Shown here piece after piece: positions 17,159 through 33,823 of a DNA stretch of 64,000 nucleotides. A program made the position numbers and the translations under genes. Source of the DNA: Pseudomonadota bacterium (GTDB lineage: Bacteria; Desulfobacterota; Desulfobacteria; Desulfobacterales; JBDRRP01). Every line of letters begins with the position of its first letter. Positions within the stretch are counted from its first letter, which is position 1. Under the pieces are notes generated by a model. It made no database searches. It worked only from the letters and a program-made list of their open reading frames with translations, and was not told the origin of the DNA. The stretch covers positions 75,046 through 139,045 of the forward strand of contig JBDRRP010000086.1 of the NCBI GenBank assembly GCA_043825735.1. The letters are read 5' to 3'.

Positions 17159-18906
17159 CAGCGGCCGGAGGTGAACGCAGCGGCACGGTTCAAGAGACAA
17201 CGATTCGTTCCGGACAATGGCTGGAACTGCTGGATGAGCTCAACATCGGCGCCTTTACCGTGGACATGAACCGGCAGATCATGGCCATGAACTTCAGCGC
17301 CCAGGGGCTCATGGGGCTCAAGGAAAGCGAGGCCGTGGGCAAGGACTGCCGGGAAGTATTTACCGGCGTTCCTTGTCTGGCCCAGTGTCTCATCAGAAAG
17401 TTCGCCCGGTCACCGGCTCCGGAAATCGACTTTGAAATTCGCGACGAAAACGAGGAAAAGCACCTCATCACGCGGCTGACCACGCCGATTCACAATCTGG
17501 CGGGGCAAGTCGTCGGCTGCATGACGATTCTTCAGGACTACTCCCCCATTGCCGACCTGATCAACCGGGTGCACTACGAAGAGCGCAGTCTGAAAATCAT
17601 TCTCGACAATTTGGATATCGGCATCTTCACCGTCAACCGCGGCGGGTTCCTGAATTTTTTCAACAAGGCCGCCGAGCGCATTACCGGCTACGACCGCCGG
17701 CTCGTTCTGGCAAAGCCCTGCGCCGCCATTTTCGGTCGTGATGCCGAAGGCGACTTCTGTCTGGCCGACAGCATTATCCCCGGCGGCAAAACCAAGCGGC
17801 ATCTGGAAGGCGTTATCGCCGTCAAGGACGGAGACACCATTCCCATCCGGGCGGACTACATCCCCCTGCGAAATGAGAAGGAAACCATCGTCGGAGGGCT
17901 GGTCACGTTTCAGGATCTCACCCTGGTGCACCAGCTCAACAAGGTCGTCAGCGACCAGTACAGTTTCCACGATATGATCGGCAAGGACCCCGCTATGCGG
18001 AAAGTCTTCGACATGGCCGGTGTCGTCGCCGAAAGCGATGCTACCGTTCTCATCGAAGGCGATACCGGAACCGGGAAAGATCTTCTGGCAAAAATCATCC
18101 ATGCAACAAGCCGGCGATCGTCCCGACCCATGGTAAAGATCAACTGCGCATCACTGCCCCACAATTTGCTGGAATCCGAGCTGTTCGGTTACGTCAAAGG
18201 GGCCTTTACCGGAGCCGACCGGGACAAACCTGGGCGGTTTCAGGAAGCCGATGGCAGCACGCTGTTTCTGGACGAGATCGGAGACCTGCCCCTGTCGTTG
18301 CAGGGAAAACTGCTGAGGGTGCTGGAAGAAAAGGAATTTTACCCCCTGGGCAGCCGGCATACGGTCACCGTGGACGTGCGCATTCTCTCCGCCACCAACC
18401 GCGGCCTGGAAAACCTGGTGGCAAAACGACGTTTCCGGGAGGATCTCTACTACCGGCTCAACGTGCTTCGCATCGAATTGCCGCGGCTTCAGGACCGGCG
18501 TGCCGATCTGCCGCTGCTCATCAACCACATCGTCCGCCGGCTGTGTGCCGCCCGGGCGAAACTGCCGCCGGCCATCACTGAAGATGCGATGCGCCTGCTG
18601 CTTTCCTTCGACTACCCGGGCAACGTGCGGCAGCTTGAAAACACCCTCGAACACGCACTGATCACCTGCAGGGGCGCTGCCATCCGCGCAGACCATCTGC
18701 CTGAGTATCTCCAACGGTCGCCTGAAAAACCCTCGGCCGTCTCTGGAGGATTGGTCACCATCCTGGAAACCACACTTGAGGAAGAGCGACAGCGGATCCT
18801 GGCCATTTTGTCCCGGTGCGGCGGGCACCGCGGCAAGGCCGCCGATGCCCTGGGAATGGCGCGAACGACCCTGTGGCGGAAGATGAAGAAACTCGGCTTG
18901 GAGTAA
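17155..18906 (+). CDS. Sigma54-dependent activator with two PAS domains, AAA+ domain and Fis-type HTH (no receiver)
   Basis: GDTGTGK, ESELFG, GAFTGA, LFLDEIG, FREDLYYRL, PGNVRQLEN, LGMARTTLWRKM; ATGA overlap with the upstream gene puts the start at 17155. Confidence 0.93.
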   Translation: MTAAGGERSGTVQETTIRSGQWLELLDELNIGAFTVDMNRQIMAMNFSAQGLMGLKESEAVGKDCREVFTGVPCLAQCLIRKFARSPAPEIDFEIRDENEEKHLITRLTTPIHNLAGQVVGCMTILQDYSPIADLINRVHYEERSLKIILDNLDIGIFTVNRGGFLNFFNKAAERITGYDRRLVLAKPCAAIFGRDAEGDFCLADSIIPGGKTKRHLEGVIAVKDGDTIPIRADYIPLRNEKETIVGGLVTFQDLTLVHQLNKVVSDQYSFHDMIGKDPAMRKVFDMAGVVAESDATVLIEGDTGTGKDLLAKIIHATSRRSSRPMVKINCASLPHNLLESELFGYVKGAFTGADRDKPGRFQEADGSTLFLDEIGDLPLSLQGKLLRVLEEKEFYPLGSRHTVTVDVRILSATNRGLENLVAKRRFREDLYYRLNVLRIELPRLQDRRADLPLLINHIVRRLCAARAKLPPAITEDAMRLLLSFDYPGNVRQLENTLEHALITCRGAAIRADHLPEYLQRSPEKPSAVSGGLVTILETTLEEERQRILAILSRCGGHRGKAADALGMARTTLWRKMKKLGLE

Positions 18907-18919
18907 AAATGGGACGCCC

Positions 18920-19186
18920 TGTTTCATTTTTGTTTCATTTTTGATGCGCAACATTTATCCGCCGTTTGCATTATTCTACCTTCCGTCCTACTCAGCGCGG
19001 GTTTACAGTGAAGACCCCGGCGTGCCCGTGCCGCGATCAATCGGCGAAACGGGCAGCACCGGTTGTTGCACAGTGTTTCATTCTGCCTTGTTGTCCATCT
19101 TCCGGCCGATCTTTCAACTGCGACAATATTCCAAATAATAATAATAAGTTATCGGTCGCTTCGCTGTAAATGGCATGCCTCGTGCT
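18920..19186 (+). promoter_or_regulatory. Sigma54 (-24/-12) promoter with upstream repeated candidate activator sites
   Basis: TGGCATGCCTCGTGCT at 19171-19186 (GG-N10-GC); TGTTTCA repeats at 18920-18937 and TGTTGCACAGTGTTTCA at 19064-19080; AT-rich tract in between. Confidence 0.7.
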
Positions 19187-19264: not shown

Positions 19265-19672
19265 GTGGGCACCAGGGCGCAGAAAAAACGCATCCTCATC
19301 GTCGATGCCGACGCTGATGTCCGCTTGTTTCTCTCCAATCTGCTGAATGCCAATGCCTATGATTCGGTTGGTGTCGGCAGTATCCAGGGCGCCCGCATGA
19401 TGGTGCCTGAGCTCAACCCCGACATGATCATTTTGGATGCCATGATGGAAAACGATGCGGGCATCGAATTGTTTGCCGAATTCAAGTGCCAGGACTGCTT
19501 CCGGGAAAAGCCGGTTCTCATGCTGGCCACACTCGACTGGCGCACCCTTACGTTGCTTCAGAAGATGAAGGACGCGGCGGTGGGACGGAGAATTCCCGAG
19601 CCGGAAGCCTATTTGAAAAAACCCCTGGAAGCAGAGGAGGTTTTGCAGCTGGTATCGCAGCTGACGCAATGA
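19265..19672 (+). CDS. Single-domain response regulator (receiver only)
   Basis: ILIVDAD, IILDAMM (phospho-Asp) and LKKP; GTG start after GGGGAG. Confidence 0.8.
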   Translation: MGTRAQKKRILIVDADADVRLFLSNLLNANAYDSVGVGSIQGARMMVPELNPDMIILDAMMENDAGIELFAEFKCQDCFREKPVLMLATLDWRTLTLLQKMKDAAVGRRIPEPEAYLKKPLEAEEVLQLVSQLTQ

Positions 19673-19696
19673 CCTTCACCATTCATGGGAGGGACG

Positions 19697-22600
19697 ATGC
19701 CTTTGAGAATCGGTTTCTACATCTGCCATTGCGGGATCAACATCGCTTACAAGGTGGACGTCGCGGCGGTGGCCGCATTTGCCGGTCAGCTGCCTGATGT
19801 GGTGGTGTCCCGGGACTACAAGTTCATGTGCTCGGACCCGGGCCAGGAAATGATCGAAAAAGATATCCGGGAGCAGGGCCTTAACCGGGTGGTGGTGGCC
19901 TCCTGCTCTCCGAGGCTTCACGAAAAGACTTTCCAGTCGGCCTGTCTGCGGGCCGGGTTGAATCCCTTCATGTTTCAGATGGCTTCGGTGCGTGAACAGG
20001 TGTCTTGGGTCACCGCTGATCCGGAAGAGGCCACGCGAAAGGCCAAGACCCTGGCGGCGGCCGCCATCAACCGGGTCCGGTATCACCACAGGCTTCAAAG
20101 CCGGGAGGTACCGGTGCACCCTGACATCCTCGTGGTGGGCGCCGGTATCGCCGGTATGCAGGCGGCGCTCGACATCGGCAATTCGGGCCGCAAGGTTCAC
20201 CTGGTGGAAAAGGACACCACCATCGGCGGTCACATGCTTCAGTTTGACAAGACATTTCCCACTCTGGACTGTGCGGCCTGCATCGGTACGCCGAAAATGG
20301 TCGAGGTGGCCCAGAATGCTAACATCGCCCTGTATTCCTATAGCGAGGTGGCCGAGGTATCCGGCGCCATCGGCAATTTCAATGTCACCATCCGGCGAAA
20401 ACCCCGTTACGTGAAGGAAGGGATCTGCACCGGCTGCGGGGAGTGCGCTTCGGTCTGCCCCGTATCGGTGCCCAGCTTGTGGGACCTGGGGATGGGACAG
20501 CGAAAGGCCATCTATCGCGCGTTTCCCCAGGCCGTGCCAATTACTTTCTGTATCGATAAAAATGACCGGGCACCGTGTGTGGGCGCCTGCCCGGCCGGGG
20601 TCAATGTCCAGGGTTACATCCAGCTTATTGCGGCCGGCCGCTACGAGCAGGCCTACCGGCTCATACAGGAGCGGCTGCCGCTTCCCGGCGTGCTGGGCCG
20701 GGTCTGCCCCCATCCCTGCGAAGACGCTTGTCGGCGGCAGGAAGTGGACGCGCCGGTGGCCATCCGGGACCTGAAGCGGTTTGCCGCCGATCAGGTGGAT
20801 GTGGATGCACTGGCCATCCCGGAGATCGCCCCCCGGCCGGAAACCGTGGCGGTGATCGGTTCCGGTCCGGCCGGCCTTACCGTCGCCTACGACTTGAGGC
20901 TGAAAGGATACGGCGTCACGGTGTTTGAGGCCCTGGACCGGCTGGGCGGCATGCTCCGGGTGGGCATTCCGGACTATCGGCTGCCACCGGATATCCTTGA
21001 CCGGGAGATCAATTACATCCGCCGGCTGGGTGTCGAGACCCGAACGGGTGTGCGCCTGGGCGTTGACATGAGCCTTTCCGAGCTGGCAACGGAAGGCTTC
21101 GCAGCGGTCTTTCTCGCCACCGGCGCCCACGGCTCACTGTCCATGAACATTCCTGGAGAAGACACCGGTGGTGGGGTGCTCGATGCGGTGGCCTTTCTTC
21201 GGGAGGTGAATCTTGGCGCCGTCCGCCTGCCGGGAGACCGGGTGGCGGTCATCGGCGGCGGCAACGTGGCCATCGATGCTGCGCGGGTGGCCCGGCGTCT
21301 GGGCGCTTCGGAGGTCACCGTGGTTTACCGCCGGTCGGAGGCGGAGATGCCGGCCTACGGAGAAGAGATCGCGGGGGCCGAGGCTGAAGGGATTCATTTC
21401 AGCACCCTGACCGCGCCGGTGGCGATTCGCAGCGAAAATGGCCGGGTGTGCGGCCTCGAGTGCATCCGCACCGAACTTGGCCCCCCGGACGACAGCGGCC
21501 GGCGGCGACCATTACCCGTCGCGGGCTCAGAGTTTTTGATCAACTGCGATGCCGTCATCCCGGCCATCGGCCAGCGCATTGACACATCCTGGGCGGCCGA
21601 AGTGCCTGAGCTGAAGTGGTCCCGCCGAGGAACTCTGACCGTGGCCGCCGGTATGCAGACCGGGCTGCCCCACATCTTTGCCGCCGGAGACCTGGTGTCC
21701 GGCCCGGCAACGGTGGTGGCGGCCGTGGCCGCCGGTCACAGCGCTGCCGAGGGGATCCATGGTTTCCTTCAGGGCGTCGCAGTGCCCATCCCGGCCCCGG
21801 GCGCGGTCGCGGCGGAGTTGACTCCGGCCGGCAATTGGGCGCCCATCGGACCGACCATCGCTGCCCAGAGCAGAGAGGGCCTGCCCCACCTTGCGCCGGA
21901 GGGGCGGGCGGAAACGTTCGATGAAGTCGCCACGGGGTTTGACGAAGTGCAGGCGCTCCGAGAGGCCGGGCGCTGCCTCAACTGCGGCACCTGCTGCGAG
22001 TGCATGGAATGCGTGAGGGCCTGTGAAGCAAATGCCATCGATCACCATATGCCCGAAACCCTGATCGACGTCACGGTGGGCAGCATCATCCTGGCCACCG
22101 GCTACGATGTGCTCGATCCCACGGCCATGAGCCAGTTCGGCTACGGACGCTACCCGAATGTATTTACCAGCCTGGAGTTCGAGCGGCTCAGCAATGCCAC
22201 GGGTCCCACCGGGGGGAAAATTCTGATCCGGGACGATGAGGGCCATTTCACCCGGACCCCTGACAGCGTTGCGATTTTGCACTGCATCGGCAGCCGGGAT
22301 GTCAACTATCATGAATACTGTTCCCGGGTCTGCTGCATGTATGCCCTCAAATACTCCCATCTCATCAAGGAAAAGGTGGGGCACCACACGCCGGTCTACG
22401 ATTTTTACATCGACATGCGTTGCTTCGGAGAGGGCTACGAAGAATTCTATCGCCGCTGTCAGGAGGAGGGTACCGTTTTCGTGCGCGGCAAGGTGGCGGA
22501 GATCACCGACCGGGCGGCGTCTCCGGAGGAAGAAGGCAAACTCATCGCCCTGGCCGAAGACACCCTGCTGGGACGAAACATCCGGGTCCCGGTAGACATG

Positions 22601-23107
22601 GTGGTGCTGTGCGTGGCCATGCAGGCCCGGGCGGACGCCGCCGATGTGGGCCGACTGTTCGGGGTCAACCTGGGCGCCGATGGTTTTTTTCTGGAAGAGC
22701 ACCCCAAGCTGGGGCCGCTGAACACCGCGACCGACGGTGTGTTTCTGGGCGGCGCCTGCCAGTCGCCAAAGGACATCCCCGACACCGTGTCCCAGGCTTC
22801 AGGGGCGGCGGCCAAGGCACTGTCCCTGGCGGACCGGGGCCACGTGCAGGTGCCCTCTGCCATTTCCTGGATCGACCCGGAAGTCTGCGCCGGTTGCCAG
22901 ACATGCATCGGTCTGTGCCCCTATTCGGCCATTGCCTTCGATCCCCGGCGGCAGGTGTCGGTCGTCAATGAGGCGCTGTGCAAGGGCTGCGGCAGTTGCA
23001 GCGGCTTTTGCCCCAGCGGCGCCGCACAGGTCAGGCACTTCAACGAGAAGCAGATCTTCGCCGAACTCGACGGCCTGATGGATGCCGTGCATGCGGTGGG
23101 GGTGTGA
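19697..23107 (+). CDS. hdrA: HdrA-like flavoprotein with inserted GltD/NfnB-like NAD(P)H-binding module (HdrL-type)
   Basis: N-terminal CHCG.NI, MCS.PGQ, CSPRLHE; GAGIAG, DKTFPTLDC, HCIGSRD...YCSRVCC; insert with CPAG, GRVCPHPCE, GSGPAG, GGGNVAID; C-terminal 2x CxxCxxCxxxC. Confidence 0.88.
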   Translation: MPLRIGFYICHCGINIAYKVDVAAVAAFAGQLPDVVVSRDYKFMCSDPGQEMIEKDIREQGLNRVVVASCSPRLHEKTFQSACLRAGLNPFMFQMASVREQVSWVTADPEEATRKAKTLAAAAINRVRYHHRLQSREVPVHPDILVVGAGIAGMQAALDIGNSGRKVHLVEKDTTIGGHMLQFDKTFPTLDCAACIGTPKMVEVAQNANIALYSYSEVAEVSGAIGNFNVTIRRKPRYVKEGICTGCGECASVCPVSVPSLWDLGMGQRKAIYRAFPQAVPITFCIDKNDRAPCVGACPAGVNVQGYIQLIAAGRYEQAYRLIQERLPLPGVLGRVCPHPCEDACRRQEVDAPVAIRDLKRFAADQVDVDALAIPEIAPRPETVAVIGSGPAGLTVAYDLRLKGYGVTVFEALDRLGGMLRVGIPDYRLPPDILDREINYIRRLGVETRTGVRLGVDMSLSELATEGFAAVFLATGAHGSLSMNIPGEDTGGGVLDAVAFLREVNLGAVRLPGDRVAVIGGGNVAIDAARVARRLGASEVTVVYRRSEAEMPAYGEEIAGAEAEGIHFSTLTAPVAIRSENGRVCGLECIRTELGPPDDSGRRRPLPVAGSEFLINCDAVIPAIGQRIDTSWAAEVPELKWSRRGTLTVAAGMQTGLPHIFAAGDLVSGPATVVAAVAAGHSAAEGIHGFLQGVAVPIPAPGAVAAELTPAGNWAPIGPTIAAQSREGLPHLAPEGRAETFDEVATGFDEVQALREAGRCLNCGTCCECMECVRACEANAIDHHMPETLIDVTVGSIILATGYDVLDPTAMSQFGYGRYPNVFTSLEFERLSNATGPTGGKILIRDDEGHFTRTPDSVAILHCIGSRDVNYHEYCSRVCCMYALKYSHLIKEKVGHHTPVYDFYIDMRCFGEGYEEFYRRCQEEGTVFVRGKVAEITDRAASPEEEGKLIALAEDTLLGRNIRVPVDMVVLCVAMQARADAADVGRLFGVNLGADGFFLEEHPKLGPLNTATDGVFLGGACQSPKDIPDTVSQASGAAAKALSLADRGHVQVPSAISWIDPEVCAGCQTCIGLCPYSAIAFDPRRQVSVVNEALCKGCGSCSGFCPSGAAQVRHFNEKQIFAELDGLMDAVHAVGV

Positions 23108-23229: not shown

Positions 23230-23293
23230 CTTCAAACGTAACGCTTGCCTGAAGGCGTGAATGAATAAAGAAGGGATACGCACGGAGGAGAAC

Positions 23294-23716
23294 ATGGAAG
23301 ACTTTGAACCGACCATCATCGCATTCGTCTGCAATTGGTGCACCTACACGGCCGCGGACCTGGCCGGCACCTCCCGGCTGGGCTACCCGCGCAATGTGCG
23401 CCTGATCCGCGTCATGTGCACGGGGATGGTGGATCCCCAGTACATCATCAAGGCATTTTTGGAGGGGGCTGACGGGGTTCTGGTGAGCGGGTGCCACCCG
23501 GGCGATTGTCATTACATCAACGGCAACTACAAGGCGCGCCGGCGCATCAAGCTGCTCAAAGAGCTGCTGCCCCAGTTCGGATTTGCACCCGAGCGGCTGC
23601 GGCTGACCTGGATCGGCGCCAGTGACGGCATCATGTTTTCAGAGATCATGAAAGCGCTGGTGAGTCAGGTGATCGCTCTCGGGCCCAGCACAGCAAAGCT
23701 CAAGATGGTCATATGA
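23294..23716 (+). CDS. mvhD: MvhD/FlxD-type 2Fe-2S subunit
   Basis: FVCNWCTYTAADLAG, VMCTGMVD, GADGVLVSGCHPGDCHY; GGAGGAG RBS. Confidence 0.92.
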   Translation: MEDFEPTIIAFVCNWCTYTAADLAGTSRLGYPRNVRLIRVMCTGMVDPQYIIKAFLEGADGVLVSGCHPGDCHYINGNYKARRRIKLLKELLPQFGFAPERLRLTWIGASDGIMFSEIMKALVSQVIALGPSTAKLKMVI

Positions 23717-23996: not shown

Positions 23997-25130
23997 ATGG
24001 CTAAGACGGTAACAGTTGACGTGAAAGACCGGGATTTGTTGGGAGCGTTGAGAGGCTTTTTGACGGCTGTACTGGCGCAGGAAGAGATCAGCGCGATTCT
24101 GGTCCCCTGGCGGCTTCCCATGAAAAACGTGGTCATGCCGACACTGGTAACGGATCCGGCCCTGATGGACCGGGCCGATCCTCTGGCGCCGGCATTTCCC
24201 ATCAACGGGGCCAAGCTTGCCAGCAGGTTGACCCGAAAGGCATCAGGTGGGCGAATCGCCGCAGTAATGCGCCCTTGCGAAATCCGGGCCTTCACCGAAC
24301 TGGTCAAGCTTAAGCAAGGCAGCGCCGAAGACCTGGTGATCATCGGCATCGATTGCCTGGGCGCCTTTGATAATTCCGATTTCACAAAGTGGGCCGAAGA
24401 AAATAACGGGGACGGCTCGCAACGGTTCGCTGCTCAGGTGCTGGCCGGGGAAACGACCGGCCCTGATCTGGCGCCGGCCTGCCGGATCTGTGAGTTTCCA
24501 GTGGCTTCGGGGGCCGACATCAGTGTGGCCCTCTACGGCGTCGATACCGGCAGCCGTATCCTGGCGATCGGGCAGAGCGCGGCCGGAGACGCGCTGCTGT
24601 CGAGCCTCGGGCTTGCCGATGCCAAGACGCCGCCGGCTCGGGAGCAGGCCGTCACGGCCTTGGTCGACGGCAGAATCACCGCCCGGGACCGCCTGTTTGC
24701 CGAGACCCGCGAGGCGACGGATGATCTGGAAAAACTGACCGGGTATCTGGCCGGCTGCGTCAACTGCTACAACTGCCGCGTGGCCTGTCCGGTCTGCTAC
24801 TGCAAGGAGTGCGTTTTTGTCACCGACGTGTTCAACCACGAGCCCCTCCAGTATCTGCGGTGGGCCGAGCGCAAGGGGGCCGTCAAAATGCCCACCGACA
24901 CGGTGTTTTATCACCTGACCCGGCTCGCTCACATGAGCACCGCGTGCGTGGGGTGTGGCCAGTGTTCCAACGCCTGCCCCAACGACATCCCGGTCATGGA
25001 ACTGTTTCGTACGGCGGCGCACGCCGTGCAGGCGGCTTTTAACTACGAAGCCGGCCGCAGCCCCGAAGAAAAGCCGCCGCTGTCGGAATTTCGTGAGAAA
25101 GAATTCGAAGAAGTCGTCGGTATGGCCTGA
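23997..25130 (+). CDS. FrhB/FdhB-family Fe-S protein with C-terminal 4Fe-4S dicluster
   Basis: RPCEIRA..ELVKLKQ...IIGIDC; CVNCYNCRVACPVCYCKEC; YHLTRLAHM..CVGCGQCSNACP, as in methanogen FdhB. Confidence 0.8.
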   Translation: MAKTVTVDVKDRDLLGALRGFLTAVLAQEEISAILVPWRLPMKNVVMPTLVTDPALMDRADPLAPAFPINGAKLASRLTRKASGGRIAAVMRPCEIRAFTELVKLKQGSAEDLVIIGIDCLGAFDNSDFTKWAEENNGDGSQRFAAQVLAGETTGPDLAPACRICEFPVASGADISVALYGVDTGSRILAIGQSAAGDALLSSLGLADAKTPPAREQAVTALVDGRITARDRLFAETREATDDLEKLTGYLAGCVNCYNCRVACPVCYCKECVFVTDVFNHEPLQYLRWAERKGAVKMPTDTVFYHLTRLAHMSTACVGCGQCSNACPNDIPVMELFRTAAHAVQAAFNYEAGRSPEEKPPLSEFREKEFEEVVGMA

Positions 25131-25141
25131 AGGGAGACGCC

Positions 25142-28100
25142 ATGAAAGCGAAAATCGGCAAGGCCCTGGTGGTGGGCGCGGGCATCAGCGGCATCCGCAG
25201 TGCGCTGGATCTGGCCGAAACCGGGTATCATGTGACGCTGATCGACCGCGCGCCGCATATCGGCGGCGTGCTCAGCCAACTGGATCGCCAGTTCCCCAGC
25301 GACCGCTGCGGCATGTGCAAGATGCTGCCCCTGGTGGACCGCGACAGCGCCAGCCAGTACTGCCTTCGCAAGGGGATGTTTCACCGGAATATCGATATCC
25401 TCCTGTCCACCGAAATCGCATCGGTCACCGGTGAGGCGGGCCGCTACGAAGTCGTGCTCAAAGAGCGTCCCACGTGGGTGGACCCCCAGCTGTGCAACGG
25501 GTGCGGTGCCTGCACGGCGGTGTGCCCTGTCGATGTGCCCGATGAATTCAATGCCGGCCTGTCTACCCGCAAGGCCATCTATCTGCCCGTGCCCCATACG
25601 ATTCCCAACCCCTTCATCATCGATCTTGCCGCCTGCACCCGCTGCGGGGCCTGCGAGACGGCCTGCCCCACCGGGGCCGTGAGGCTGTCCCAACAGGAGC
25701 GAAAGAAATTCCGGATTCTGGTGGTGGATGACGAATTGGTGGTGAGAGATTCCATCAAGGCCTGGCTCGAAGAGGAAGGCGGATTTGCCGTGGAAACGGC
25801 TGCCTCGGGTCCGGAGGCCCTGGAACTGCTTTCCCGAAATGCCTACCACCTCATGATGCTCGACATCAAAATGCCGGGGATGGACGGGGTGGATGTGCTC
25901 AAGGCCGCAATGGAAACGGCGGCTGATCTGCCGGTGATCATGATGACCGCCTATGCGGCCGTCGAGACCGCCGTTGAAGCCATGAAGCTGGGCGCCCTGG
26001 ACTACCTCATCAAACCCTTTGATCCGGCATCGCTAACAGCCATGGTTATCGCCCGCTACGAGGATGCCGAGGCCGCCCGGGGCCGAAAGCTGGAAGTGGG
26101 CGCCGTGGTGCTGTGCGGCGGCACCGAGCATTACGATCCCACCGGCGGGAAGAACACCTTGGGCTACGGCCTGGTGCCGGACGTCGTCACCGGGCTGGAA
26201 TTTGAGCGGATCATGAGCGGCACCGGTCCTTCGGGAGGGCGGCTCGTGCGCCCCAGCGATGGGCGTCCCATCCGGCGGGTGGCATGGCTCCAGTGCGTGG
26301 GTTCCAGGGATCTTCAGGCCGACGCGGATTTTTGTTCGAGCATCTGCTGCATGTTCGCCATCAAGGAAGCCATCGTGGCCAGGGAGCAGGCTGGGGGGGA
26401 TTTTGAGGCCAGTATTTTTTATATGGACATGCGCACCTGCGGCAAAGGTTTCCAGCGCTACCGGGAGCGGGCTGAAACCGAGCACGGCATCGCTTTTATC
26501 CGGGGGCGGGTGCACTCGGTCGTGAGGGACGCCGCCACCGGCGACCTCATGCTGCGCACCACCAAAGAGGACGGCGGCAGCCATGACACCGCCGTAGACC
26601 TGGTCGTGTTGTCGGTGGGGCAGCGACCCGCCCCGGCGGTGGCAAAACTGACCGAACCGCTGGCGCTGGACACGAACCCGTGGGGGTTCGTAAAAACCGC
26701 ACCGTTTTCTCTGACCCGTGTCGGCAATGACGGCGTCTTTGTGGGCGGATCGTTTGCCGGACCCCGTGATATCGGGGAGGCCGTCATTCAGGCCTCCGCC
26801 GCGGCGTTGGGCGCTTCCCGCGTGATCCATTCTCATGGTGGCGGCATGGCCGTGGTGGCGGATGCCGCGGTTCCGCCGCCAAAGGACGTCTCATTCGAGA
26901 CGCCGCGCGCCCTGGTGGTGGTCTGTACGTGCGGCGGTCGCCTGCTGAAAGGCCTCGATATGGCGGCTCTGGAACAATCTTTTCAGCGCGATCCCGCAGT
27001 GGCGCAGATTGCATCGGCGGAGAATCTGTGTACGGCCGCCGGGTGGGACGCGCTCACGGAAATGATGACCGCCCATCAGCCCAACCGTCTGCTCCTGGGC
27101 ACCTGCATGCCGTATGTCTATAATGAGAAATTGGACGCGCTCAGCCGCCGCATCCAACTGCCGCGCGCGCTCATGACTGCTGTGGACATACGGCCGCCGG
27201 CCCCGGCGTCGGGTACCCCGCCCGCAGATGCCCCCGCCACGGCTGGCCATGTGCTGTCGGTATTGAGATCCGGCCTGGCCAAACTCAAACACGCCGAACC
27301 CGGGCCGGTGGAGACCCGGCCGGTGACAGCCGGGGCACTGGTGATGGGCGGCGGCATCGCCGGCATGACCGCAGCACTGGCCATCGCGGATCACGGTTTT
27401 CACGTGGACCTGGTGGAGGCCGCCGATGCTTTAGGCGGCAACCTCAAGTGGGTGTCGGGTACCCTGGACGGAGAGGATACCGCGCCGCTGCTCGCCGACA
27501 GTATCAAGAAAGTGGAAAATCACCCCCGCGTCACCGTTCACACCCGGACCCGCCTTATCCATGCCGCTGGTCGGGTGGGAGCGTTTTCCAGCACCATCGA
27601 GGCGGCCGACGGCCGGGTGGAAATGCTCTCCCATGGCGTGACCATCCTGGCCACCGGGGGGCATGAAGCGCCCACCACGGCCTATGGATATGGTCGGCTC
27701 GATGGGGTTATCACCCAGAAGGAAATGGCGCAGGCGATTGCCGAGGGCTTTCTGGCAACGGAAAAGACCGGCTCGGTGGTGATGATCCTTTGCGTGGAAT
27801 CCCGTGAAGAGCCCCGCAACTATTGCAGCAAGGTGTGCTGCACAACGGCCCTTAAACACGCCCTTTATCTGAAAAAAGCCTGGCCGGACGCGCCGGTCAC
27901 CGTGGTGTACCGCGACATGATGACCACCGGATTTGCCGAGCACTGGTACACCGAGGCCCGGCGGCAGGGGGTTTTGTTTATTCGATACACACCGGAGCGC
28001 AAACCGACAGTGGCACCGGCTGCGGCCGGGGATGCCGGCAGCCGCCTGCAGGTGGATGTATGGGAGCCCTTGCTCGCAAAGCGGTTGCTTATCGAAGCCG

Positions 28101-28588
28101 ATCTGGTCGTGCTGGCAACCGGCGTAATCCCTGATTTGCCGGCCGATGTGGCAGCGGCCTATGGTGCCGCTTGTGACGGCGACGGCTTTTTTCAGGAGGC
28201 GGAATCCAAGTGGCGGCCGGTCGATTCGCTCACCGAAGGGGTCTTTGCGAGCGGTTTGTGTCATTCTCCCCGGTCCATCGCCGAATCCATCGCCACCGCC
28301 GAAGCCGCCGCCCAGCGGGCCCTGAGAATTCTTGCCAGTGAGTCGCTGCCGGTGAGCCGCGTCTCGGCCAGTGTCCGTCACAGTCTGTGCTCCCTGTGCC
28401 TGCGCTGCATCGACGCCTGCCCCTATGGGGCACGCAGCGTCGATACGGACGAGGAGCGCATCGTGGTCAATTCGCTCATGTGCCAGGGGTGCGGCGCGTG
28501 TGCCGCCGCCTGCCCGAATGGGGCGTCCATTATTGACGGGTATTCCAAGCCGTTCGTCATGGAGATGATCGATGCGGCGTTTGGGTGA
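25142..28588 (+). CDS. hdrA: Tandem HdrA-like flavoprotein with an internal response-regulator receiver domain
   Basis: Module 1: GAGISG, ferredoxin insert, REC (~25709-26065), QCVGSRD...FCSSICC. Internal CTCG..NLC..GTC domain. Module 2: GGGIAG, CVESRE...YCSKVCC. C-terminal 2x CxxCxxCxxxC. Confidence 0.88.
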   Translation: MKAKIGKALVVGAGISGIRSALDLAETGYHVTLIDRAPHIGGVLSQLDRQFPSDRCGMCKMLPLVDRDSASQYCLRKGMFHRNIDILLSTEIASVTGEAGRYEVVLKERPTWVDPQLCNGCGACTAVCPVDVPDEFNAGLSTRKAIYLPVPHTIPNPFIIDLAACTRCGACETACPTGAVRLSQQERKKFRILVVDDELVVRDSIKAWLEEEGGFAVETAASGPEALELLSRNAYHLMMLDIKMPGMDGVDVLKAAMETAADLPVIMMTAYAAVETAVEAMKLGALDYLIKPFDPASLTAMVIARYEDAEAARGRKLEVGAVVLCGGTEHYDPTGGKNTLGYGLVPDVVTGLEFERIMSGTGPSGGRLVRPSDGRPIRRVAWLQCVGSRDLQADADFCSSICCMFAIKEAIVAREQAGGDFEASIFYMDMRTCGKGFQRYRERAETEHGIAFIRGRVHSVVRDAATGDLMLRTTKEDGGSHDTAVDLVVLSVGQRPAPAVAKLTEPLALDTNPWGFVKTAPFSLTRVGNDGVFVGGSFAGPRDIGEAVIQASAAALGASRVIHSHGGGMAVVADAAVPPPKDVSFETPRALVVVCTCGGRLLKGLDMAALEQSFQRDPAVAQIASAENLCTAAGWDALTEMMTAHQPNRLLLGTCMPYVYNEKLDALSRRIQLPRALMTAVDIRPPAPASGTPPADAPATAGHVLSVLRSGLAKLKHAEPGPVETRPVTAGALVMGGGIAGMTAALAIADHGFHVDLVEAADALGGNLKWVSGTLDGEDTAPLLADSIKKVENHPRVTVHTRTRLIHAAGRVGAFSSTIEAADGRVEMLSHGVTILATGGHEAPTTAYGYGRLDGVITQKEMAQAIAEGFLATEKTGSVVMILCVESREEPRNYCSKVCCTTALKHALYLKKAWPDAPVTVVYRDMMTTGFAEHWYTEARRQGVLFIRYTPERKPTVAPAAAGDAGSRLQVDVWEPLLAKRLLIEADLVVLATGVIPDLPADVAAAYGAACDGDGFFQEAESKWRPVDSLTEGVFASGLCHSPRSIAESIATAEAAAQRALRILASESLPVSRVSASVRHSLCSLCLRCIDACPYGARSVDTDEERIVVNSLMCQGCGACAAACPNGASIIDGYSKPFVMEMIDAAFG

Positions 28589-28759
28589 GGAAAGTAGAAG
28601 ATGGGAGATGGGAGATCGGAGATAGGGCAGGGACGATTGCTGATTATCGTTATGGCGGATGCGATCCGCTAGTCAACGAATGACAAAACCGATGCTGGTG
28701 CGTAGGGGTGGGGTTTAACCCCGCCCGCAGGCATCAACCAGTTGCGCAAGGAAAAGACC

Positions 28760-29332
28760 ATGATGCAGCCGCAGACTACTGACAATGCCTCAGCGCGCGT
28801 GAGCATCGCCGTTCCCGACCAACTCGCGCCGGTGCGCGAGATGGTCCAGGCGTGCATTCAGTGCGGGACGTGCTCGGGCTCGTGCCCCAACGCCTTTGCC
28901 ATGGACATCACGCCCCGGCGCATGTGGCGCATGGTGCTCACAGGCCAGATGGCGGATCTTTTCAGCAGCAAGACCTTCATGCTCTGCTCGGTCTGCTACG
29001 CCTGCACCCTGAGATGCCCGCGCGGGCTTCCCCTGACCGATGCCATGAGCGCGCTCAAGCGGATCGCCGCCCGGGAAAACCGGCATCGAAGCAGCACTCA
29101 GTTTTACCTGAACTTCATGGAAAGCGTGCGTCGGCACGGCCGTGTGCGGGAGATGGAATTTATGACCCTGTATTTTTTCGCCATGAAAAATCCGCTGCTC
29201 CCGTTGCAGTTTGCATCCCTGGGGATGCGGCTGATGGCCAAGGGGAAAGTGTCGCTGCAGCTGCCGTCAAAAGGCAAGGGTAAACTCGACACCATATTTC
29301 GCAACGCGGAAGCCATGGAGGCGAAAGAATGA
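28760..29332 (+). CDS. hdrC: Heterodisulfide reductase subunit C-like 4Fe-4S protein
   Basis: CIQCGTCSGSCP and CSVCYACTLRCPRG; overlaps hdrB (ATGA). Confidence 0.85.
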   Translation: MMQPQTTDNASARVSIAVPDQLAPVREMVQACIQCGTCSGSCPNAFAMDITPRRMWRMVLTGQMADLFSSKTFMLCSVCYACTLRCPRGLPLTDAMSALKRIAARENRHRSSTQFYLNFMESVRRHGRVREMEFMTLYFFAMKNPLLPLQFASLGMRLMAKGKVSLQLPSKGKGKLDTIFRNAEAMEAKE

Positions 29333-30207
29333 ACTATTTGTACTACCCGGGGTGCTCACTGGAAGGGACGGCAAAGGAGTACGACCTGTCCACCCGGACA
29401 TTTATGGCGGCCGTGGGCGCCGTACTGACCGAATTGCCGGACTGGACCTGCTGCGGTGCGAGCGCTGCAGAGGCCACCAGTGCCGTTCTTTCCTTGGCCC
29501 TGCCGGCGAGAAACCTGGCCCTGGCCCAGCGTGCGGCGCCGGGGACCGATGTGTTGATTCCCTGCAGTGCCTGTTACCTGAATCTCAAGAAGGCGGCGGA
29601 AAAAATCCGGGAACCTGCCGTACTCAGCATGGTTAACACCGTCCTGGGGGAAGAAGATCTGGTCATGGGCACCGGAGTGCGGCCCCGGCATCTTCTAGAT
29701 GTTTTGAGTGTTGATATTGGCGCCCAAACCCTGGACGCGCGGGTCGCGCACCGGCTCGACGGTCTTGTCATTGCCCCTTACTACGGGTGCCAGTGTCTGC
29801 GTCCCTACCATGTGTTTGACGACCCGGAGCGGCCCCGGTCCATGGCGCCGCTCATTGAGGCCGTGGGTGCGACGGTCTTTCCCTGGGAAATGGGCGCTCG
29901 TTGCTGCGGCGCTTCTCACCTGACCACCAAACCGGCAGTGGGTCTCGAACTGGTGGCGGCAATTCTGAGTGCGGCCCGGGGGGCCGATGCCATTGTGACC
30001 GTCTGCCCCATGTGCCAGATGAATTTGGAAGCCTACCAGAAGAAAGCCTCCGGGCTCAACGGCAACGATTTGGAAATATCCATACTCTACCTGCCGCAAC
30101 TGCTCGGCCTGGCCGTCGGCCTTCCGGCCAGAGACCTGGGGATCGATCTCAATCTGACAATTACCGATGCGCTTTGCGACCGTCTCGAGGTGCTGGTGCC
30201 GGTGTGA
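29329..30207 (+). CDS. hdrB: Heterodisulfide reductase subunit B-like (two CCG domains)
   Basis: YYPGC, WTCCG, PCSAC; YYGC, CCG, VCPMCQMNLE. Confidence 0.9.
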   Translation: MNYLYYPGCSLEGTAKEYDLSTRTFMAAVGAVLTELPDWTCCGASAAEATSAVLSLALPARNLALAQRAAPGTDVLIPCSACYLNLKKAAEKIREPAVLSMVNTVLGEEDLVMGTGVRPRHLLDVLSVDIGAQTLDARVAHRLDGLVIAPYYGCQCLRPYHVFDDPERPRSMAPLIEAVGATVFPWEMGARCCGASHLTTKPAVGLELVAAILSAARGADAIVTVCPMCQMNLEAYQKKASGLNGNDLEISILYLPQLLGLAVGLPARDLGIDLNLTITDALCDRLEVLVPV

Positions 30208-30356
30208 CCGGGGGGCGTTTGGTGCATGAGCTATCAAATAGCTGCGGTGTCGGATCGTCTCCAAAGGAACCATCGCAGCAAAGGGTTCATTGAACACGCC
30301 CCGGATTTTTTTATCCGCCGGTGGGACACGACACCTTGCCCCGGAGTGCCTTTCTT

Positions 30357-32630
30357 ATGAAAAGTCCGATGAAAATGATTCGCCGCAGCCTGGCCGCCAA
30401 ACTCATCGTCATGGTGGGTAGTGTGCTGCTGTTGTCCATCGCCATCTGGTTCTATTACAACATCCGCTACCAGAAGGCCCAGATGATGGAAAATATTGTG
30501 GAGGGCACGGACCGGCTTACCAACGCCATCCGGCTGGGCACCCACTACGCTATGATGCTCAACTCCAGAGACGACATCACCCAGATCATCAACAACATCG
30601 CGCGTCAACCTGAAATCGAGAACATCCGCATTTACAACAAGGCCGGGCAGATCAAGTATTCCAACAAACCCGGAGAAGTCGACACCATCACCAATATCAA
30701 GGCCGAGGCCTGTGATATCTGCCACCGAAGCGATCCGCCGCAGGCCGCGCTCGCGTTGACCGAGCGCACGCGGATTTTTAGAGGGCCGGGCGGATACCGC
30801 CTGCTGGGTATCATCAGCCCTATCTGCAACGATACCGGCTGCGCCACCGGTGATTGCCACGTGCATCCGGAAGGAAAAGTTATCCTGGGCGCGCTGGACC
30901 TGGTGGTCTCACTCGAAAAGATCGACCGCGAGATCCTTGCGGCGGAAAAAGGCATCCTCGGGCTGACCGCTTTTATTTTCTTCGTCACCTCCTCCATCAT
31001 CTTCGTCTTCGTGCTCCACTTCGTCAACCAGCCGGTGAAGCGGTTGATCCGGAGCACGAAACTGATCGGCCAGGGCCAATACGCCACACGCGTGTCGGTC
31101 CAGCAGGAGGACGAGTTGGGTCAACTGGCCGAAACCATCAACGGCATGGGAGAGCAGATCGGCAAAAAACAGGAGGAATTGAGGCGGCAGCGCGACGAGT
31201 ACCAGAACCTTTTCGATCTGGTTCCCTGCATGATCACGGTGCAGGATCGCAACTACCGCATCCTTCGCTGCAACAGCGCTTTTTTCGGCGTGTTCCGGCC
31301 CGAGCCCGGCGATCTGTGTTTTCGCGCCTACAAGGGGCGCACTGAGAAATGCATCAACTGCCCGGTGGAAACGACGTTCGCCGATGGCCAGTCTCACTAC
31401 GCCGAAGAGACGGGGATCGACAAGGACGGCAATCCCAAGCACTGGCTGGTGAGAACTTCTCCCATCCGGGACGACGCCGGTGATATCGTGGCCGCCATGG
31501 AAGTTTCCCTGGACATTACTCCCCGCAAGCTTTTGGAAGACAAGCTGGAGGCATCCGAGAAGAAGTACCACGCCATCTTCAACAATATCCCAAACCCGGT
31601 ATTCGTTCTCGATAAGAAGACGCTGGTGATTCTCGACTGCAACGAGAGCGTCAAACCGGTTTACGCCATAGACGGCAAAGCACTGATCGGCGTCCCGTTT
31701 CCTGAGCTGTTCGCACCTGAAGAACGGGAGCGCTACGCCGGGGCGATCATTTCTTCGGAGGTGATCAACCAGGCCAAACAGGTGGCGGCCGGCGGCAAGA
31801 CAATATTCGTCAACATCCGCGTCTCTCCTTCGGAATATGACGGCCGCCACGTGCTGCTGGTGACCACCAGCGACATCACCCAGCGTCTGGAGACCGAGCA
31901 GCAGCTCATCCAGGCCAGCAAGATGGCCACCCTCGGGGAAATGGCCACCGGGGTGGCCCACGAACTCAACCAGCCCCTGTCGGTCATCAAGACGGCCAGC
32001 AGTTTTTTTATCAAGAAACTCGACACCCAAAGCCACCTGGATCCGGAAATTTTGTCGATCATGCTTCGAAAAATAGACGCCAACGTCGACCGGGCCTCAA
32101 AGATCATCAGTCATATGCGCCTGTTTGCCAGAAAGTCGGAGATCGACCTGGTGCACACCAATGTCAACGCCGTTCTGGTGAAGGCCTTCGAGATGTTCAG
32201 CCAGCAGCTCAAGGTGCGCGGCATCGAGGTGGTCTGGGATATCGCGGAAGATCTGCCCCCGGTGAGCGCAGACCCCATCCGGCTGGAGCAGGTGTTCATC
32301 AATCTGCTGCTTAACGCCCGCGATGCCATCGAGGAGCGTCTCGGCACCGATGCCGGCGTGCAGGAAGGCGTCATCAGACTTAAAACGCGCTTGAACAAGG
32401 AGATGGCTGTCATTGAAGTCGCCGACAACGGCAACGGCATTCCAGGCGAAATGGTGGACAAGGTCTTTGAGCCCTTTTTCACGACCAAGGAAGTTGGCAA
32501 GGGTACGGGGCTCGGCCTGTCCATCAGTTACGGCATCATCCGCGAGTGCGGCGGCAGCATTCGCGCAACCAACATGCCCGGCGGCGGGGCCAGGTTCATC
32601 ATTGCCCTGCCGGTTTGGAGGAGCGCATGA
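30357..32630 (+). CDS. Membrane sensor histidine kinase: periplasmic heme-c-motif domain, HAMP, 2 PAS, HisKA, HATPase
   Basis: Two TM segments flank CDICH and CATGDCH; HAMP DELGQLA; H-box [27 protein letters not shown]. Confidence 0.9.
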
Positions 32631-33823
32631 AACCCACCCCTGAAGGCATCGACACCATACTGCTCGTGGATGATGAAGAAGACATCCGCGAAGTGCTCTC
32701 GCTGTCCCTGACTGACATGGGCCACCGGGTGATCTGCGCGCGGGACGGCGTGGAGGGTCTGGCGCTGTATATGGAAGAAAAACCGCTCGTGGTGCTGACC
32801 GACATCAAGATGCCCAAGATGAACGGCATCGATCTGCTGCAGAAGATCAAGCATGAAAACCCGGAAACCGAAGTGATCATGATCACGGGTCACGGCGACA
32901 TGGACCTGGCGATCATGAGTCTCAAATACGATGCGGCCGATTTTGTCACCAAACCCATCAATGTGGACGCGCTCGAAATCGCCATGAAGCGGGCCTGTGA
33001 CCGCATCATCACCCGCCGCCAGCTCAGGTCCTATATGGAAAACCTTGAACGGCTGGTGCGCGAAAAGACCGAGTTGCAAGATCACCTCTCGTCGTTGGGG
33101 CTCATGATCGGCTCCATCAGTCACGGCATCAAGGGGCTGCTCACCGGTCTTGACGGCGGCATGTACGACATCGACCGGGGTCTGGGAAAGAAGGATCTTG
33201 GGGAAATCGCCGAGGGATGGCTGACGGTGAAGCAGGTGATGGCGCGCATCCGCAAAATGGTCCTGGACATTCTTTACTATGCCAAGGATCGGGATCTTCA
33301 GTGGGAGTGGGTCAATGTGCTGCAATTCGCCGAGGAGGTGGCGGCGGTGTTCGCATCCAAACTCCAGCAGTCAGGCATCGACTTTGTTCGCGATTTCGAC
33401 CCGTCGGCCACCGAGGCCCGCATCGATCCGGGCAGCGTTCACGCCGCGCTCATCAACATCCTGGAAAACGCGGTGGATGCTTGCCTGCGGGACGCTTCCA
33501 AGGATCAGCACACCATCACCTTCGGCGTCAGCCAGCGGGCCGGCGAAATCATTTTCAAGGTGCACGACAACGGCACCGGCATGAACCGGGAGACCCTGGA
33601 AAAGATCTTCGCGCTGTTTTACTCTTCAAAGGGCAGCGCCGGCACCGGTTTGGGCCTGTTTATCTCCAATACCATCGTGCGCCAGCACGGGGGCCAGATC
33701 CAGGTCTCATCCACCCCGGGCGTCGGCACCGTTTTCACCATCCGCCTGCCGGCGGAGCCAACCGGCGAAACCGTCCGGAACCCCGCCGAGGCGTCTGCTG
33801 CAGCCGAATCCGCGGATGGTTAA
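32627..33823 (+). CDS. Soluble REC-histidine kinase with atypical H-box
   Basis: LVDDE, TDIKMP, ITG, TKP; SISHGIKGLL; ENAVDA, DNGTGM, GTGLGL; ATGA overlap gives the start at 32627. Confidence 0.88.
   Translation: MKPTPEGIDTILLVDDEEDIREVLSLSLTDMGHRVICARDGVEGLALYMEEKPLVVLTDIKMPKMNGIDLLQKIKHENPETEVIMITGHGDMDLAIMSLKYDAADFVTKPINVDALEIAMKRACDRIITRRQLRSYMENLERLVREKTELQDHLSSLGLMIGSISHGIKGLLTGLDGGMYDIDRGLGKKDLGEIAEGWLTVKQVMARIRKMVLDILYYAKDRDLQWEWVNVLQFAEEVAAVFASKLQQSGIDFVRDFDPSATEARIDPGSVHAALINILENAVDACLRDASKDQHTITFGVSQRAGEIIFKVHDNGTGMNRETLEKIFALFYSSKGSAGTGLGLFISNTIVRQHGGQIQVSSTPGVGTVFTIRLPAEPTGETVRNPAEASAAAESADG

Follow-up and report, generated by a model that had tools for sequence, protein, structure and literature searches.

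We analysed a stretch of 64,000 nucleotides (the window) from contig JBDRRP010000086.1, part of the genome assembly of a desulfobacterial bacterium of the sulfate-reducer type, in which a gene on the forward strand encodes an enzyme resembling subunit A of heterodisulfide reductase (HdrA) with a two-component receiver domain (REC) built into its flavin module. The gene is one uninterrupted reading frame that starts with ATG and runs for 1148 codons without a stop or a frame change, and its product, which we call the double HdrA, holds two HdrA modules in a single chain; both points had been made in a preliminary description of the sequence and both were confirmed. The parts of the gene are as follows, with positions counted from the first nucleotide of the window.

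25142–28588 (+): double HdrA with inserted receiver, 1148 residues (Pfam, alignment with the solved HdrA chain 5odc_A, AlphaFold2, Foldseek)
25472–25699 (+): inserted ferredoxin domain of module 1, residues 111–186, with 8 cysteines (Pfam Fer4; 5odc_A 238–313)
25700–26077 (+): receiver domain with its linkers, residues 187–312 (Pfam, AlphaFold2, residue conservation; codon of D241 at 25862–25864)
26078–26851 (+): flavin (thioredoxin-reductase-like) domain of module 1 resumes, with iron–sulfur (FeS) cysteines C385, C398, C402 and C403
26894–28585 (+): HdrA module 2, with N-terminal FeS domain, flavin adenine dinucleotide (FAD) domain and C-terminal 2x[4Fe-4S] ferredoxin, without an inserted ferredoxin

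A receiver at the ferredoxin hinge of a double HdrA

The double HdrA matched 5odc_A with a sequence E value of 2.5e-110. Its AlphaFold2 model, built from a 56-row alignment (mean predicted local distance difference test score (pLDDT) 88.5, predicted template modelling (TM) score 0.89), returned as best Foldseek matches the HdrA chains of 8RVY, 8RVU, 5ODC and 7BKB/7BKD (8rvy_A: E 1.9e-44, target TM score 0.76). The NCBIfam models HdrA2 and HdrA gave four matching stretches, both under their cut-offs (659.4 versus 1100 bits and 524.7 versus 1400 bits); by sequence, the protein is HdrA-like and not an equivalog of the methanogen CoB-CoM HdrA or HdrA2.

Module 1 (residues 1–570) contains a FAD domain, the sole inserted ferredoxin and C59, which aligns with Cys197 of 5odc_A, and it has no N-terminal domain. 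Module 2 (residues 585–1148) consists of an N-terminal FeS domain (about 585–725, with C595, C597, C630 and C655), a FAD domain (726–1070) and a C-terminal ferredoxin (1071–1148). In Pfam terms, Fer4 motifs at residues 113–180 and Pyr_redox_2 flank the receiver, a second FAD module begins at residue 733 and the C-terminal di-cluster ferredoxin lies at 1076–1128. The glycines of both FAD-binding GxGxxG motifs (G12/G14/G17 and G736/G738/G741) are invariant. Cysteines that are invariant or at least 90% conserved stand at positions 56, 59, 74, 118, 121, 124, 128, 165, 168, 171, 175, 385, 398, 402 and 403 in module 1 and at 595, 597, 630, 655, 884, 895, 899, 900 and 1083–1124 in module 2; within the inserted ferredoxin, C118, C128, C165, C168, C171 and C175 are invariant and C121 and C124 are conserved at 90% or more. 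The FAD-binding stretch of module 2 (about 736–883) has no cysteine of this class where module 1 has C56/C59. Judged by conserved columns, the set of FeS cysteine ligands of HdrA is complete but divided between the two modules, and the N-terminal domain and the Cys197-type ligand lie on different modules, as in a fused, pseudo-heterodimeric HdrA.

The preliminary description had placed a complete receiver between the CPTGAV end of the ferredoxin and the LEVGAVVLCGG motif, with all canonical residues present, and this also held. Pfam Response_reg (PF00072) matches residues 192–302 over profile positions 1–110 of 111 (E 2.8e-30, 105.2 bits against a cut-off of 30.2). From CPTGAV at residue 175, the chain runs through VVDDE at 194 (D196 and D197), LDIKMP at 240 (D241), MMTAY at 267 (T269) and IKPF at 290 (K291) to LEVGAVVLCGG at 317, and the catalytic quintet of the receiver (D196, D197, D241, T269 and K291) is complete. 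In the alignment with 5odc_A, residues 7–185 correspond to 145–313 of the solved chain and residues 317–558 to 319–561. Because this alignment breaks between 313 and 319, the receiver with its linkers (residues 186–316) is a clean insertion that replaces about five linker residues. The insertion site is where the inserted ferredoxin domain, at its C-terminal end, rejoins the flavin domain, and since module 2 has no inserted ferredoxin, the receiver sits on the only inserted-ferredoxin arm of the pseudo-dimer.

In the AlphaFold2 model, the receiver adopts a canonical (βα)5 fold, with mean pLDDT per block of about 71–92. Secondary structure assigned by DSSP comprises β1 191–195, α1 199–211, β2 216–220, α2 223–232, β3 237–241, α3 249–259, β4 265–269, α4 274–282, β5 287–290 and α5 295–312. 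Helix α5 is followed within three residues by a flavin-domain strand (316–319), and β1 begins about 5–10 residues after the last cluster motif of the ferredoxin insert. None of the listed Foldseek matches of the model contained a receiver.

Conservation was measured in 169 sequences that are contiguous over the ferredoxin, receiver and flavin domain, 164 of them distinct. D241 is kept in all 164, K291 in 163, D196 in 162, and D197 and T269 in 161 each, and the entire D/D/D/T/K set is intact in 161 of the 164. The exceptions belong to one divergent lineage (P0138, P0141 and L011), which has a domain at the same site without the acidic pair and the switch threonine. By these residues, the domain in this lineage is a pseudo-receiver and would have to act without canonical phosphotransfer, because the acidic pair and switch threonine have been lost.

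When the 161 canonical receivers of HdrA were compared with 79 of the NtrC type, the following positions proved at least 90% conserved in the HdrA set only: R187, F190, D203, W208, M238, I242, V250 and Y306, with S204, E212, S222 and A272 just below. The family-specific positions sit in the N-terminal linker, in α1 and at the end of α5, and the α4–β5 face is conserved in the HdrA receivers and the NtrC-type outgroup alike. Kinases dock on α1 of receivers. The family-specific positions are compatible with kinase docking (α1) or with stitching of the domain into HdrA (the linkers), and the data do not separate the two.

Recurrence and origin of the fusion

As the window derives from a metagenome-assembled genome, an artefact of assembly or gene calling could have joined a response-regulator gene to pieces of hdrA, and the preliminary description had raised the prospects of a chimera at the receiver junctions and of a fusion absent from related genomes. 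In a search with residues 110–420, all of the 120 best matches listed carried PF00072. Most were 1130–1170 residues long, and they were drawn from NCBI, ENA, JGI and Logan, the 8.0-Mb genome of Desulfonema magnum, a cultured carrier with the protein WP_207680659.1, among them. In an even sample of the phylum, with five candidates scored per genome, the fused junction was present at E ≤ 1e-60 in 11 of 401 genomes (the genome of the window and 10 others), in 9 of the 340 high-quality ones and in 10 of 255 genera. A library clustered at 50% identity had a receiver at the HdrA site in about 31 of its best 150 representatives, 8 of them full-length. Base composition is even over both receiver junctions. 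A 3173-nucleotide contig of the probable source run, which is not independent evidence, matches 25420–28588 with 0 differences and spans both junctions. Read sets X2 and X3 contained fragments of relatives only, some of them across the 5' receiver junction, and RNA run X10 matched the window only with pieces of 33–48 nucleotides on conserved motifs. With this recurrence across databases and genomes, the open frame, the even composition and the junction-spanning contig, the artefact explanation is refuted for practical purposes and its probability is negligible.

Of the tandem HdrA proteins encoded in the genome of the window (6.8 Mb, 160 contigs), one bears a receiver and at least six paralogues do not. 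Several receiver-less HdrA paralogues of this genome show a single in-frame TGA within their N-terminal flavin/ferredoxin portion (contig C152 at 94075–94599, 90238–90756 and 64988–65479, contig C68 at 135653–136180 and contig C93 at 114341–114835); they may be selenocysteine codons, and selenocysteine has been reported for Hdr proteins of Desulfobacterium autotrophicum in the part of PMC2702500 consulted. Tandem HdrA proteins, receiver-bearing ones counted, occur in 166 of the 401 sampled genomes (E ≤ 1e-200).

To trace the insertion, we built a FastTree tree of 77 host proteins with the receiver columns removed. All 37 receiver-bearing rows fell inside one clade of 39 with a support of 98, and the two other members, P0151 and P0163, have no receiver; this fits a single gain of the receiver within tandem HdrA followed by two losses. 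In a tree of the receivers themselves (120 columns, with 82 of 176 branches open and therefore of low resolution), the HdrA receivers form one group of 25 rows plus a contig-end fragment and the receiver of one other protein. This protein is a 444-residue Usp-like/REC/Usp-like chain encoded just downstream of the hdr operon at locus L016 (14659–15990, − strand; the Usp assignment was made by eye), and its receiver has nearly identical motif content. The receiver cassette has been copied into this protein, which possibly has a kinase in common with it. By NCBIfam profiles and by the receiver tree, the inserted domain is most like receivers of the NtrC/AtoC/ZraR type. The nearest non-HdrA receivers in the tree all come from NtrC-type sigma-54 activators, some encoded beside such operons, and receivers of such operon-adjacent activators are among the 15 nearest; this does no more than suggest a derivation from the operon's own activator.

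Two other joinings of a receiver with an HdrA-like module were found. P0137 has three N-terminal receivers followed by a single HdrA-like module, and P0222 has a receiver, a glycine-cleavage-H (lipoyl-carrier-like) domain and an HdrA-like module, a layout that recalls the lipoate-binding proteins used by the sHdr systems of sulfur oxidizers.

The operon and its kinases

We scanned 15 open reading frames (ORFs) around the double HdrA gene (12372–36797) with Pfam. Its neighbours are listed below.

16001–17158 (+): recHK1, a REC-HisKA-HATPase hybrid kinase (Response_reg 2.3e-31, HisKA 7.6e-13, HATPase_c 1.9e-26)
17155–18906 (+): sigma-54 activator with PAS-PAS-AAA-HTH_8 and no receiver (Sigma54_activat 2e-69, PAS_4, PAS_9, HTH_8); the mechanical ORF runs from 16831 and the methionine at 17155 is the presumed start
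19171–19185 (+): weak candidate sigma-54 (−24/−12) promoter, TGGCATGCCTCGTGC, about 80 nucleotides upstream of the sREC gene
19265–19672 (+): sREC, a small stand-alone receiver of 135 residues, the first gene of the operon (Response_reg 7.9e-11)
19685–23107 (+): HdrL, an HdrA with a GltD/NfnB-like NAD(P)H module after the inserted ferredoxin (Fer4_20, Pyr_redox_2 4.6e-44, FAD, Fer4)
23261–23716 (+): MvhD (FlpD), a [2Fe-2S]-type subunit (Pfam FlpD 1.6e-52)
23997–25130 (+): FdhB/ElpB-like FeS flavoprotein subunit (FrhB_FdhB_C 4.2e-08)
28742–29332 (+): HdrC-like ferredoxin subunit (Pfam Fer4_17, Fer4_8)
29329–30207 (+): HdrB-like subunit with two CCG domains (Pfam CCG 2.2e-18, two stretches)
30321–32630 (+): HK2, a sensor kinase (Pfam HAMP, two PAS, HisKA, HATPase) with a pair of haem-c motifs
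32627–33823 (+): recHK3, a REC-DHp-HATPase hybrid kinase (Pfam; mechanical ORF from 32546)

HdrL, MvhD, the FdhB-like protein, HdrA, HdrC and HdrB are thus co-encoded, as in an HdrABC/HdrL operon, and the gene order is the same in receiver-bearing loci with enough flanking sequence. The best solved relatives of the FdhB/ElpB-like protein are FdhB-type subunits of Hdr complexes (8rvu_E at 9.4e-27, 9t1s_M and 7bkb_E). Homologues of sREC occupy the same place at L013, L014, L019, L020, L021, L023, L027 and L098. Neither bam genes nor any receiver-bearing transcription factor that could accept phosphoryl groups turned up among the ORFs scanned, the sigma-54 activator having PAS domains but lacking a receiver. 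The window contains 54 matches to sigma-54-type promoters where 84.8 are expected, so the class is not above chance; a strict motif lies upstream in 3 of 21 loci, the window included, when mechanical ORF starts are used.

Two further features of these loci were noted. Upstream of the signalling genes of the window, two neighbouring genes at 12372–14160 (−) encode P-loop proteins of the CbiA/MinD type that contain Fer4 inserts. Upstream of HdrL at five loci there is a protein of about 770 residues with an HdrC-like FeS region (L013, 612–2921; L024, 1–1830; L027, 2152–4452; L106, 16567–18939; L107, 2651–4918), and the receiver-bearing ones among them, L013, L024 and L027, have no HdrC/HdrB pair after HdrA. 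Gene content at these loci suggests an alternative acceptor module.

All three kinases that the preliminary description had seen nearby were recovered (recHK1, HK2 and recHK3). recHK3 is 35% identical to recHK1 over its full length and retains the histidine of the H-box. HK2 consists of a hydrophobic stretch, an extracytoplasmic part, a second hydrophobic stretch, HAMP, two PAS domains, HisKA and HATPase, and in its extracytoplasmic part some 43 residues separate the motifs CDICH and CATGDCH. Each of the 11 distinct full-length HK2-type orthologues examined has, like the HK2 of the window, a CXXCH plus CX4-5CH pair, of which the partial HK2 of L014 retains the second motif. We infer from these motifs that HK2 is a c-type haem sensor. 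The pair was not found in the N-terminally shorter forms at L012, L092 and L099 or in the contig-cut HK2 of L019; the three shorter forms are kinases of about 550–620 residues, beside the same operon, that keep the PAS-kinase core and have lost the membrane and haem-motif part. The first PAS domain of HK2 (about residues 330–350) has a cysteine-rich stretch, C-x11-C-x2-C with a further cysteine 14 residues upstream, which might hold a metal or an FeS cluster alongside the haem motifs of the periplasmic part.

Synteny was assessed at 25 distinct loci with a canonical receiver (the window, 18 from genome contigs and 6 from the genome search, after removal of three duplicates), two of which were too short to judge; kinases were counted by hand from the gene maps. 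At least one kinase was present in the fetched flanks of 21 of the 23 informative loci, and an HK2-type orthologue in 17; most of these orthologues are encoded immediately downstream in the same orientation, and a recHK3-type gene mostly comes next.

Possible roles of the receiver and comparison with known systems

Building on the observed anatomy, insertion point, near-invariance of the phosphorylation residues, single origin and conserved kinase-bearing operon, we propose that an NtrC-class receiver at the ferredoxin hinge of an HdrABC/HdrL-type double HdrA is phosphorylated on Asp241 by the kinases of the operon and thereby switches the low-potential branch of the enzyme. We put this proposal slightly below an even chance. 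HK2 would sense the periplasmic redox state or a ligand through its c-type haem and would signal, by way of one or both REC-kinase hybrids, to the receiver of HdrA and to the small receiver. Phosphorylation of Asp241 would move the α4–β5–α5 face and helix α5, as in other receivers, and this movement would pass through the two short linkers to the inserted ferredoxin arm, because α5 ends no more than three residues from the flavin strand and β1 begins about 5–10 residues from the last cluster motif. The phosphorylated receiver would then reposition or occlude the arm and so change access to, or the distance from, the low-potential exit clusters, from which the arm would hand electrons to a ferredoxin or polyferredoxin-like partner. 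We would expect fast switching between a coupled (bifurcating or confurcating) and an idle or uncoupled state, atop sigma-54-dependent transcription. The position of the insertion, at the hinge of the inserted ferredoxin, fits such gating of electron flow, and the suggestion of the preliminary description that phosphorylation could gate electron flow or complex assembly is partly supported. Also in favour of the proposal are the joining of receivers to HdrA-like modules in at least two further architectures (P0137 and P0222) and the finding of no receiver-bearing transcription factor among the 15 ORFs scanned. A fuller version, in which a haem-c kinase cascade phosphorylates the built-in receiver to open or close the sole low-potential ferredoxin branch and sister operons without the inserted receiver do likewise in trans, is one that we hold tentatively, with the chances standing against it.

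Several observations weigh against this proposal. Every signalling and gating step in it is inferred from sequence, the geometry between receiver and clusters rests on the secondary structure of a model and on linker lengths, and the single-origin tree was made with FastTree only. The receiver has been lost twice (P0151 and P0163) and is degenerate once (P0138, P0141 and L011), so the enzyme works without a phospho-switch. Among the informative receiver-bearing loci, L018 and L093 have no kinase in the sequence available. The genome of the window contains 141 kinase-like ORFs, and 29% of random ±10 kb windows in it have at least one and 7% at least two; in addition, five of its six tandem HdrA paralogues without a receiver have a kinase within 10 kb. 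Kinase proximity alone was dropped as an argument because this control shows it to be unspecific in this genome, and we therefore rely on conserved orthologous synteny. Finally, of seven orthologous operons without an inserted receiver, from other families (L101–L107), five have kinases, and four (L101, L102, L103 and L105) have two adjacent single-domain receivers and a kinase directly after the hdr genes; since these operons keep their kinases and receivers, the kinases may serve free receivers or transcription first.

In the remaining operons of this set, one has a divergent kinase and an NtrC-type regulator and two have neither. Because operons without the insertion carry them, two-component genes are part of this operon family whether or not a receiver is inserted in HdrA, and the free receivers may be the counterpart in trans of the fused one, a Rosetta-stone-type reading. 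At L100 (G041, contig C3, 469500–489400), where the receiver is degenerate, HK2 and recHK3 were not found in the 7 kb downstream and only a divergent kinase and an NtrC-type regulator are present; this fits a role of HK2 and recHK3 in serving an intact receiver, in a single lineage.

NtrC-class receivers act by rearrangements of α4–β5–α5 dimers. The nearest relatives of the inserted domain belong to this class, and its α4–β5–α5 face is almost invariant, though equally so in the NtrC-type outgroup. The receiver might therefore control assembly, with dimerization of receivers, or docking and release of partners such as HdrL, the MvhD/FdhB-like arm or a ferredoxin-like acceptor, deciding which complex forms. 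The operon offers several alternative electron-input modules for such a choice. In methanogen complexes, according to PMC12350162, the polyferredoxins FmdF and MvhB bind to the inserted ferredoxin domain of HdrA, through which electrons are expected to leave. The positions conserved only in the HdrA family (R187, F190, D203, W208 and Y306) lie, however, in the N-terminal linker, α1 and the end of α5 and not in α4–β5, and occlusion of a docking site would itself be a form of gating, so that the two explanations overlap. We consider control of assembly unlikely, though a genuine contender.

It is also conceivable that the receiver is a phosphate sink or reporter, perhaps redox-dependent, that tunes the small receivers and REC-kinase hybrids, and that the enzyme is not the target. 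The operon has many receivers (sREC, two REC-kinase hybrids and the receiver of HdrA) and few outputs, orthologous operons without the insertion retain a kinase and two single-domain receivers, and the near-copy of the receiver in the Usp-REC-Usp protein beside the operon at L016 suggests one kinase with several acceptors. A sink would not, however, need precise insertion at the hinge of a catalytic fold, with short linkers, kept over several families of the phylum sample, and the ORFs scanned include no receiver-bearing transcription factor to tune. On balance we think this improbable. That the domain is a structural spacer or scaffold next to the ferredoxin insert, no longer phosphorylated, is very improbable for the window protein: an intact D/D/D/T/K set here and in nearly all distinct relatives is unexpected of a pure scaffold, and by sequence the pseudo-receiver reading is real only in the minor lineage of P0138, P0141 and L011, which keeps the domain without the acidic pair and switch threonine.

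Electron-bifurcating Hdr-type complexes set how anaerobes that live near the thermodynamic limit split electrons between high- and low-potential acceptors. Post-translational control of such an enzyme has, to our knowledge, not been described, and a literature search found no report of it. A receiver at the ferredoxin exit hinge, together with a conserved kinase that has haem-c motifs, provides a concrete and testable handle on bifurcating electron flow, and it opens the question of whether this flow is switched by signalling within seconds. If the proposed gating by phosphorylation holds, it would be the first case of a two-component system switching flavin-based electron bifurcation or confurcation at the post-translational level. 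A redox flavoprotein with several clusters would then join the outputs known for response regulators, and the HdrABC/HdrL complex, abundant but uncharacterized in sulfate reducers and syntrophs, would gain a first hint of its function.

Like the HdrA of methanogens (5ODC, Mvh-Hdr; 8RVY/8RVU, Elp-Hdr; 7BKB, Fdh-Hdr-Fmd), the window protein has a flavin domain, an inserted 2x[4Fe-4S] ferredoxin, an N-terminal FeS domain and a C-terminal ferredoxin, and genes for HdrB, HdrC, MvhD and an FdhB-like protein lie alongside. It differs in having two modules in one chain, with the domains divided between them, and a receiver of 126 residues in place of the linker after the ferredoxin. Two modules with complementary loss of the N-terminal FeS domain and the Cys197-type ligand are also found in HdrA3/HdrA4 of anaerobic methanotrophic archaea (ANME) and in the HdrA of Moorella MetFV-HdrABC-MvhD, as described in the consulted sections of PMC9012536. 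In the window, the order is reversed relative to ANME HdrA3/4, with the module that has the Cys197 equivalent but no N-terminal domain in front, and those sections report none of these proteins with a receiver. They also describe HdrL, or HdrA with an NfnB-like insert, in which a foreign domain occupies the corresponding site, either inside the inserted ferredoxin domain or at its end. The HdrL encoded in the same operon, at two genes' distance upstream of the double HdrA, carries its GltD/NfnB-like module at this very site. HdrL thus carries a redox insert (FAD/NAD(P)H and FeS), whereas that of the window HdrA is a signalling domain without a cofactor.

At the level of the locus, Sfum_0819-0824 of Syntrophobacter fumaroxidans likewise encodes HdrL, MvhD, an FdhB-like FeS protein, HdrA, HdrC and HdrB (PMC5947623, in part), and locus VIII of Desulfobacterium autotrophicum HRM2, hdrL/hdrA4-hdrCB, has the same gene set (PMC2702500, in part). 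The HdrABC/HdrL complex of S. fumaroxidans was detected only with sulfate and has been proposed to confurcate electrons, possibly towards DsrC, in the consulted part of PMC5947623. The texts of these two papers link no receiver to HdrA: the word 'receiver' is absent from PMC5947623, and in PMC2702500 'response regulator' and 'CheY-like regulator' occur once each, as labels of neighbouring genes in a figure legend. Loci L037 and L038, from metagenome-assembled genomes of Syntrophobacteraceae, do carry the inserted receiver.

That a covalently linked receiver can control an enzyme is well established, as in CheB and PleD. Unlike the receivers of such regulators with enzymatic outputs, that of the double HdrA is not terminal and lies embedded in the fold of a redox flavoprotein with several clusters. 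It is closest to receivers of the NtrC class, but Pfam finds neither AAA+ nor a helix-turn-helix (HTH) output in the chain, which is accordingly not an NtrC-family response regulator. The preliminary description had known of no characterized example, and our literature search agreed: no paper was found that describes a receiver in HdrA, and in a preprint surveying HdrA domain architectures the terms 'receiver', 'response regulator' and 'CheY' are all absent. In databases, such proteins already go by names such as 'response regulator', 'FAD-dependent oxidoreductase', 'heterodisulfide reductase subunit A' or 'two component system response regulator domain-containing protein, FAD/NAD(P)-binding'. 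By its sequence and recurrence, HdrA with an inserted receiver, of which we found no published description, is a real and widespread variant of a known enzyme, and the function that we propose for its receiver is regulatory.

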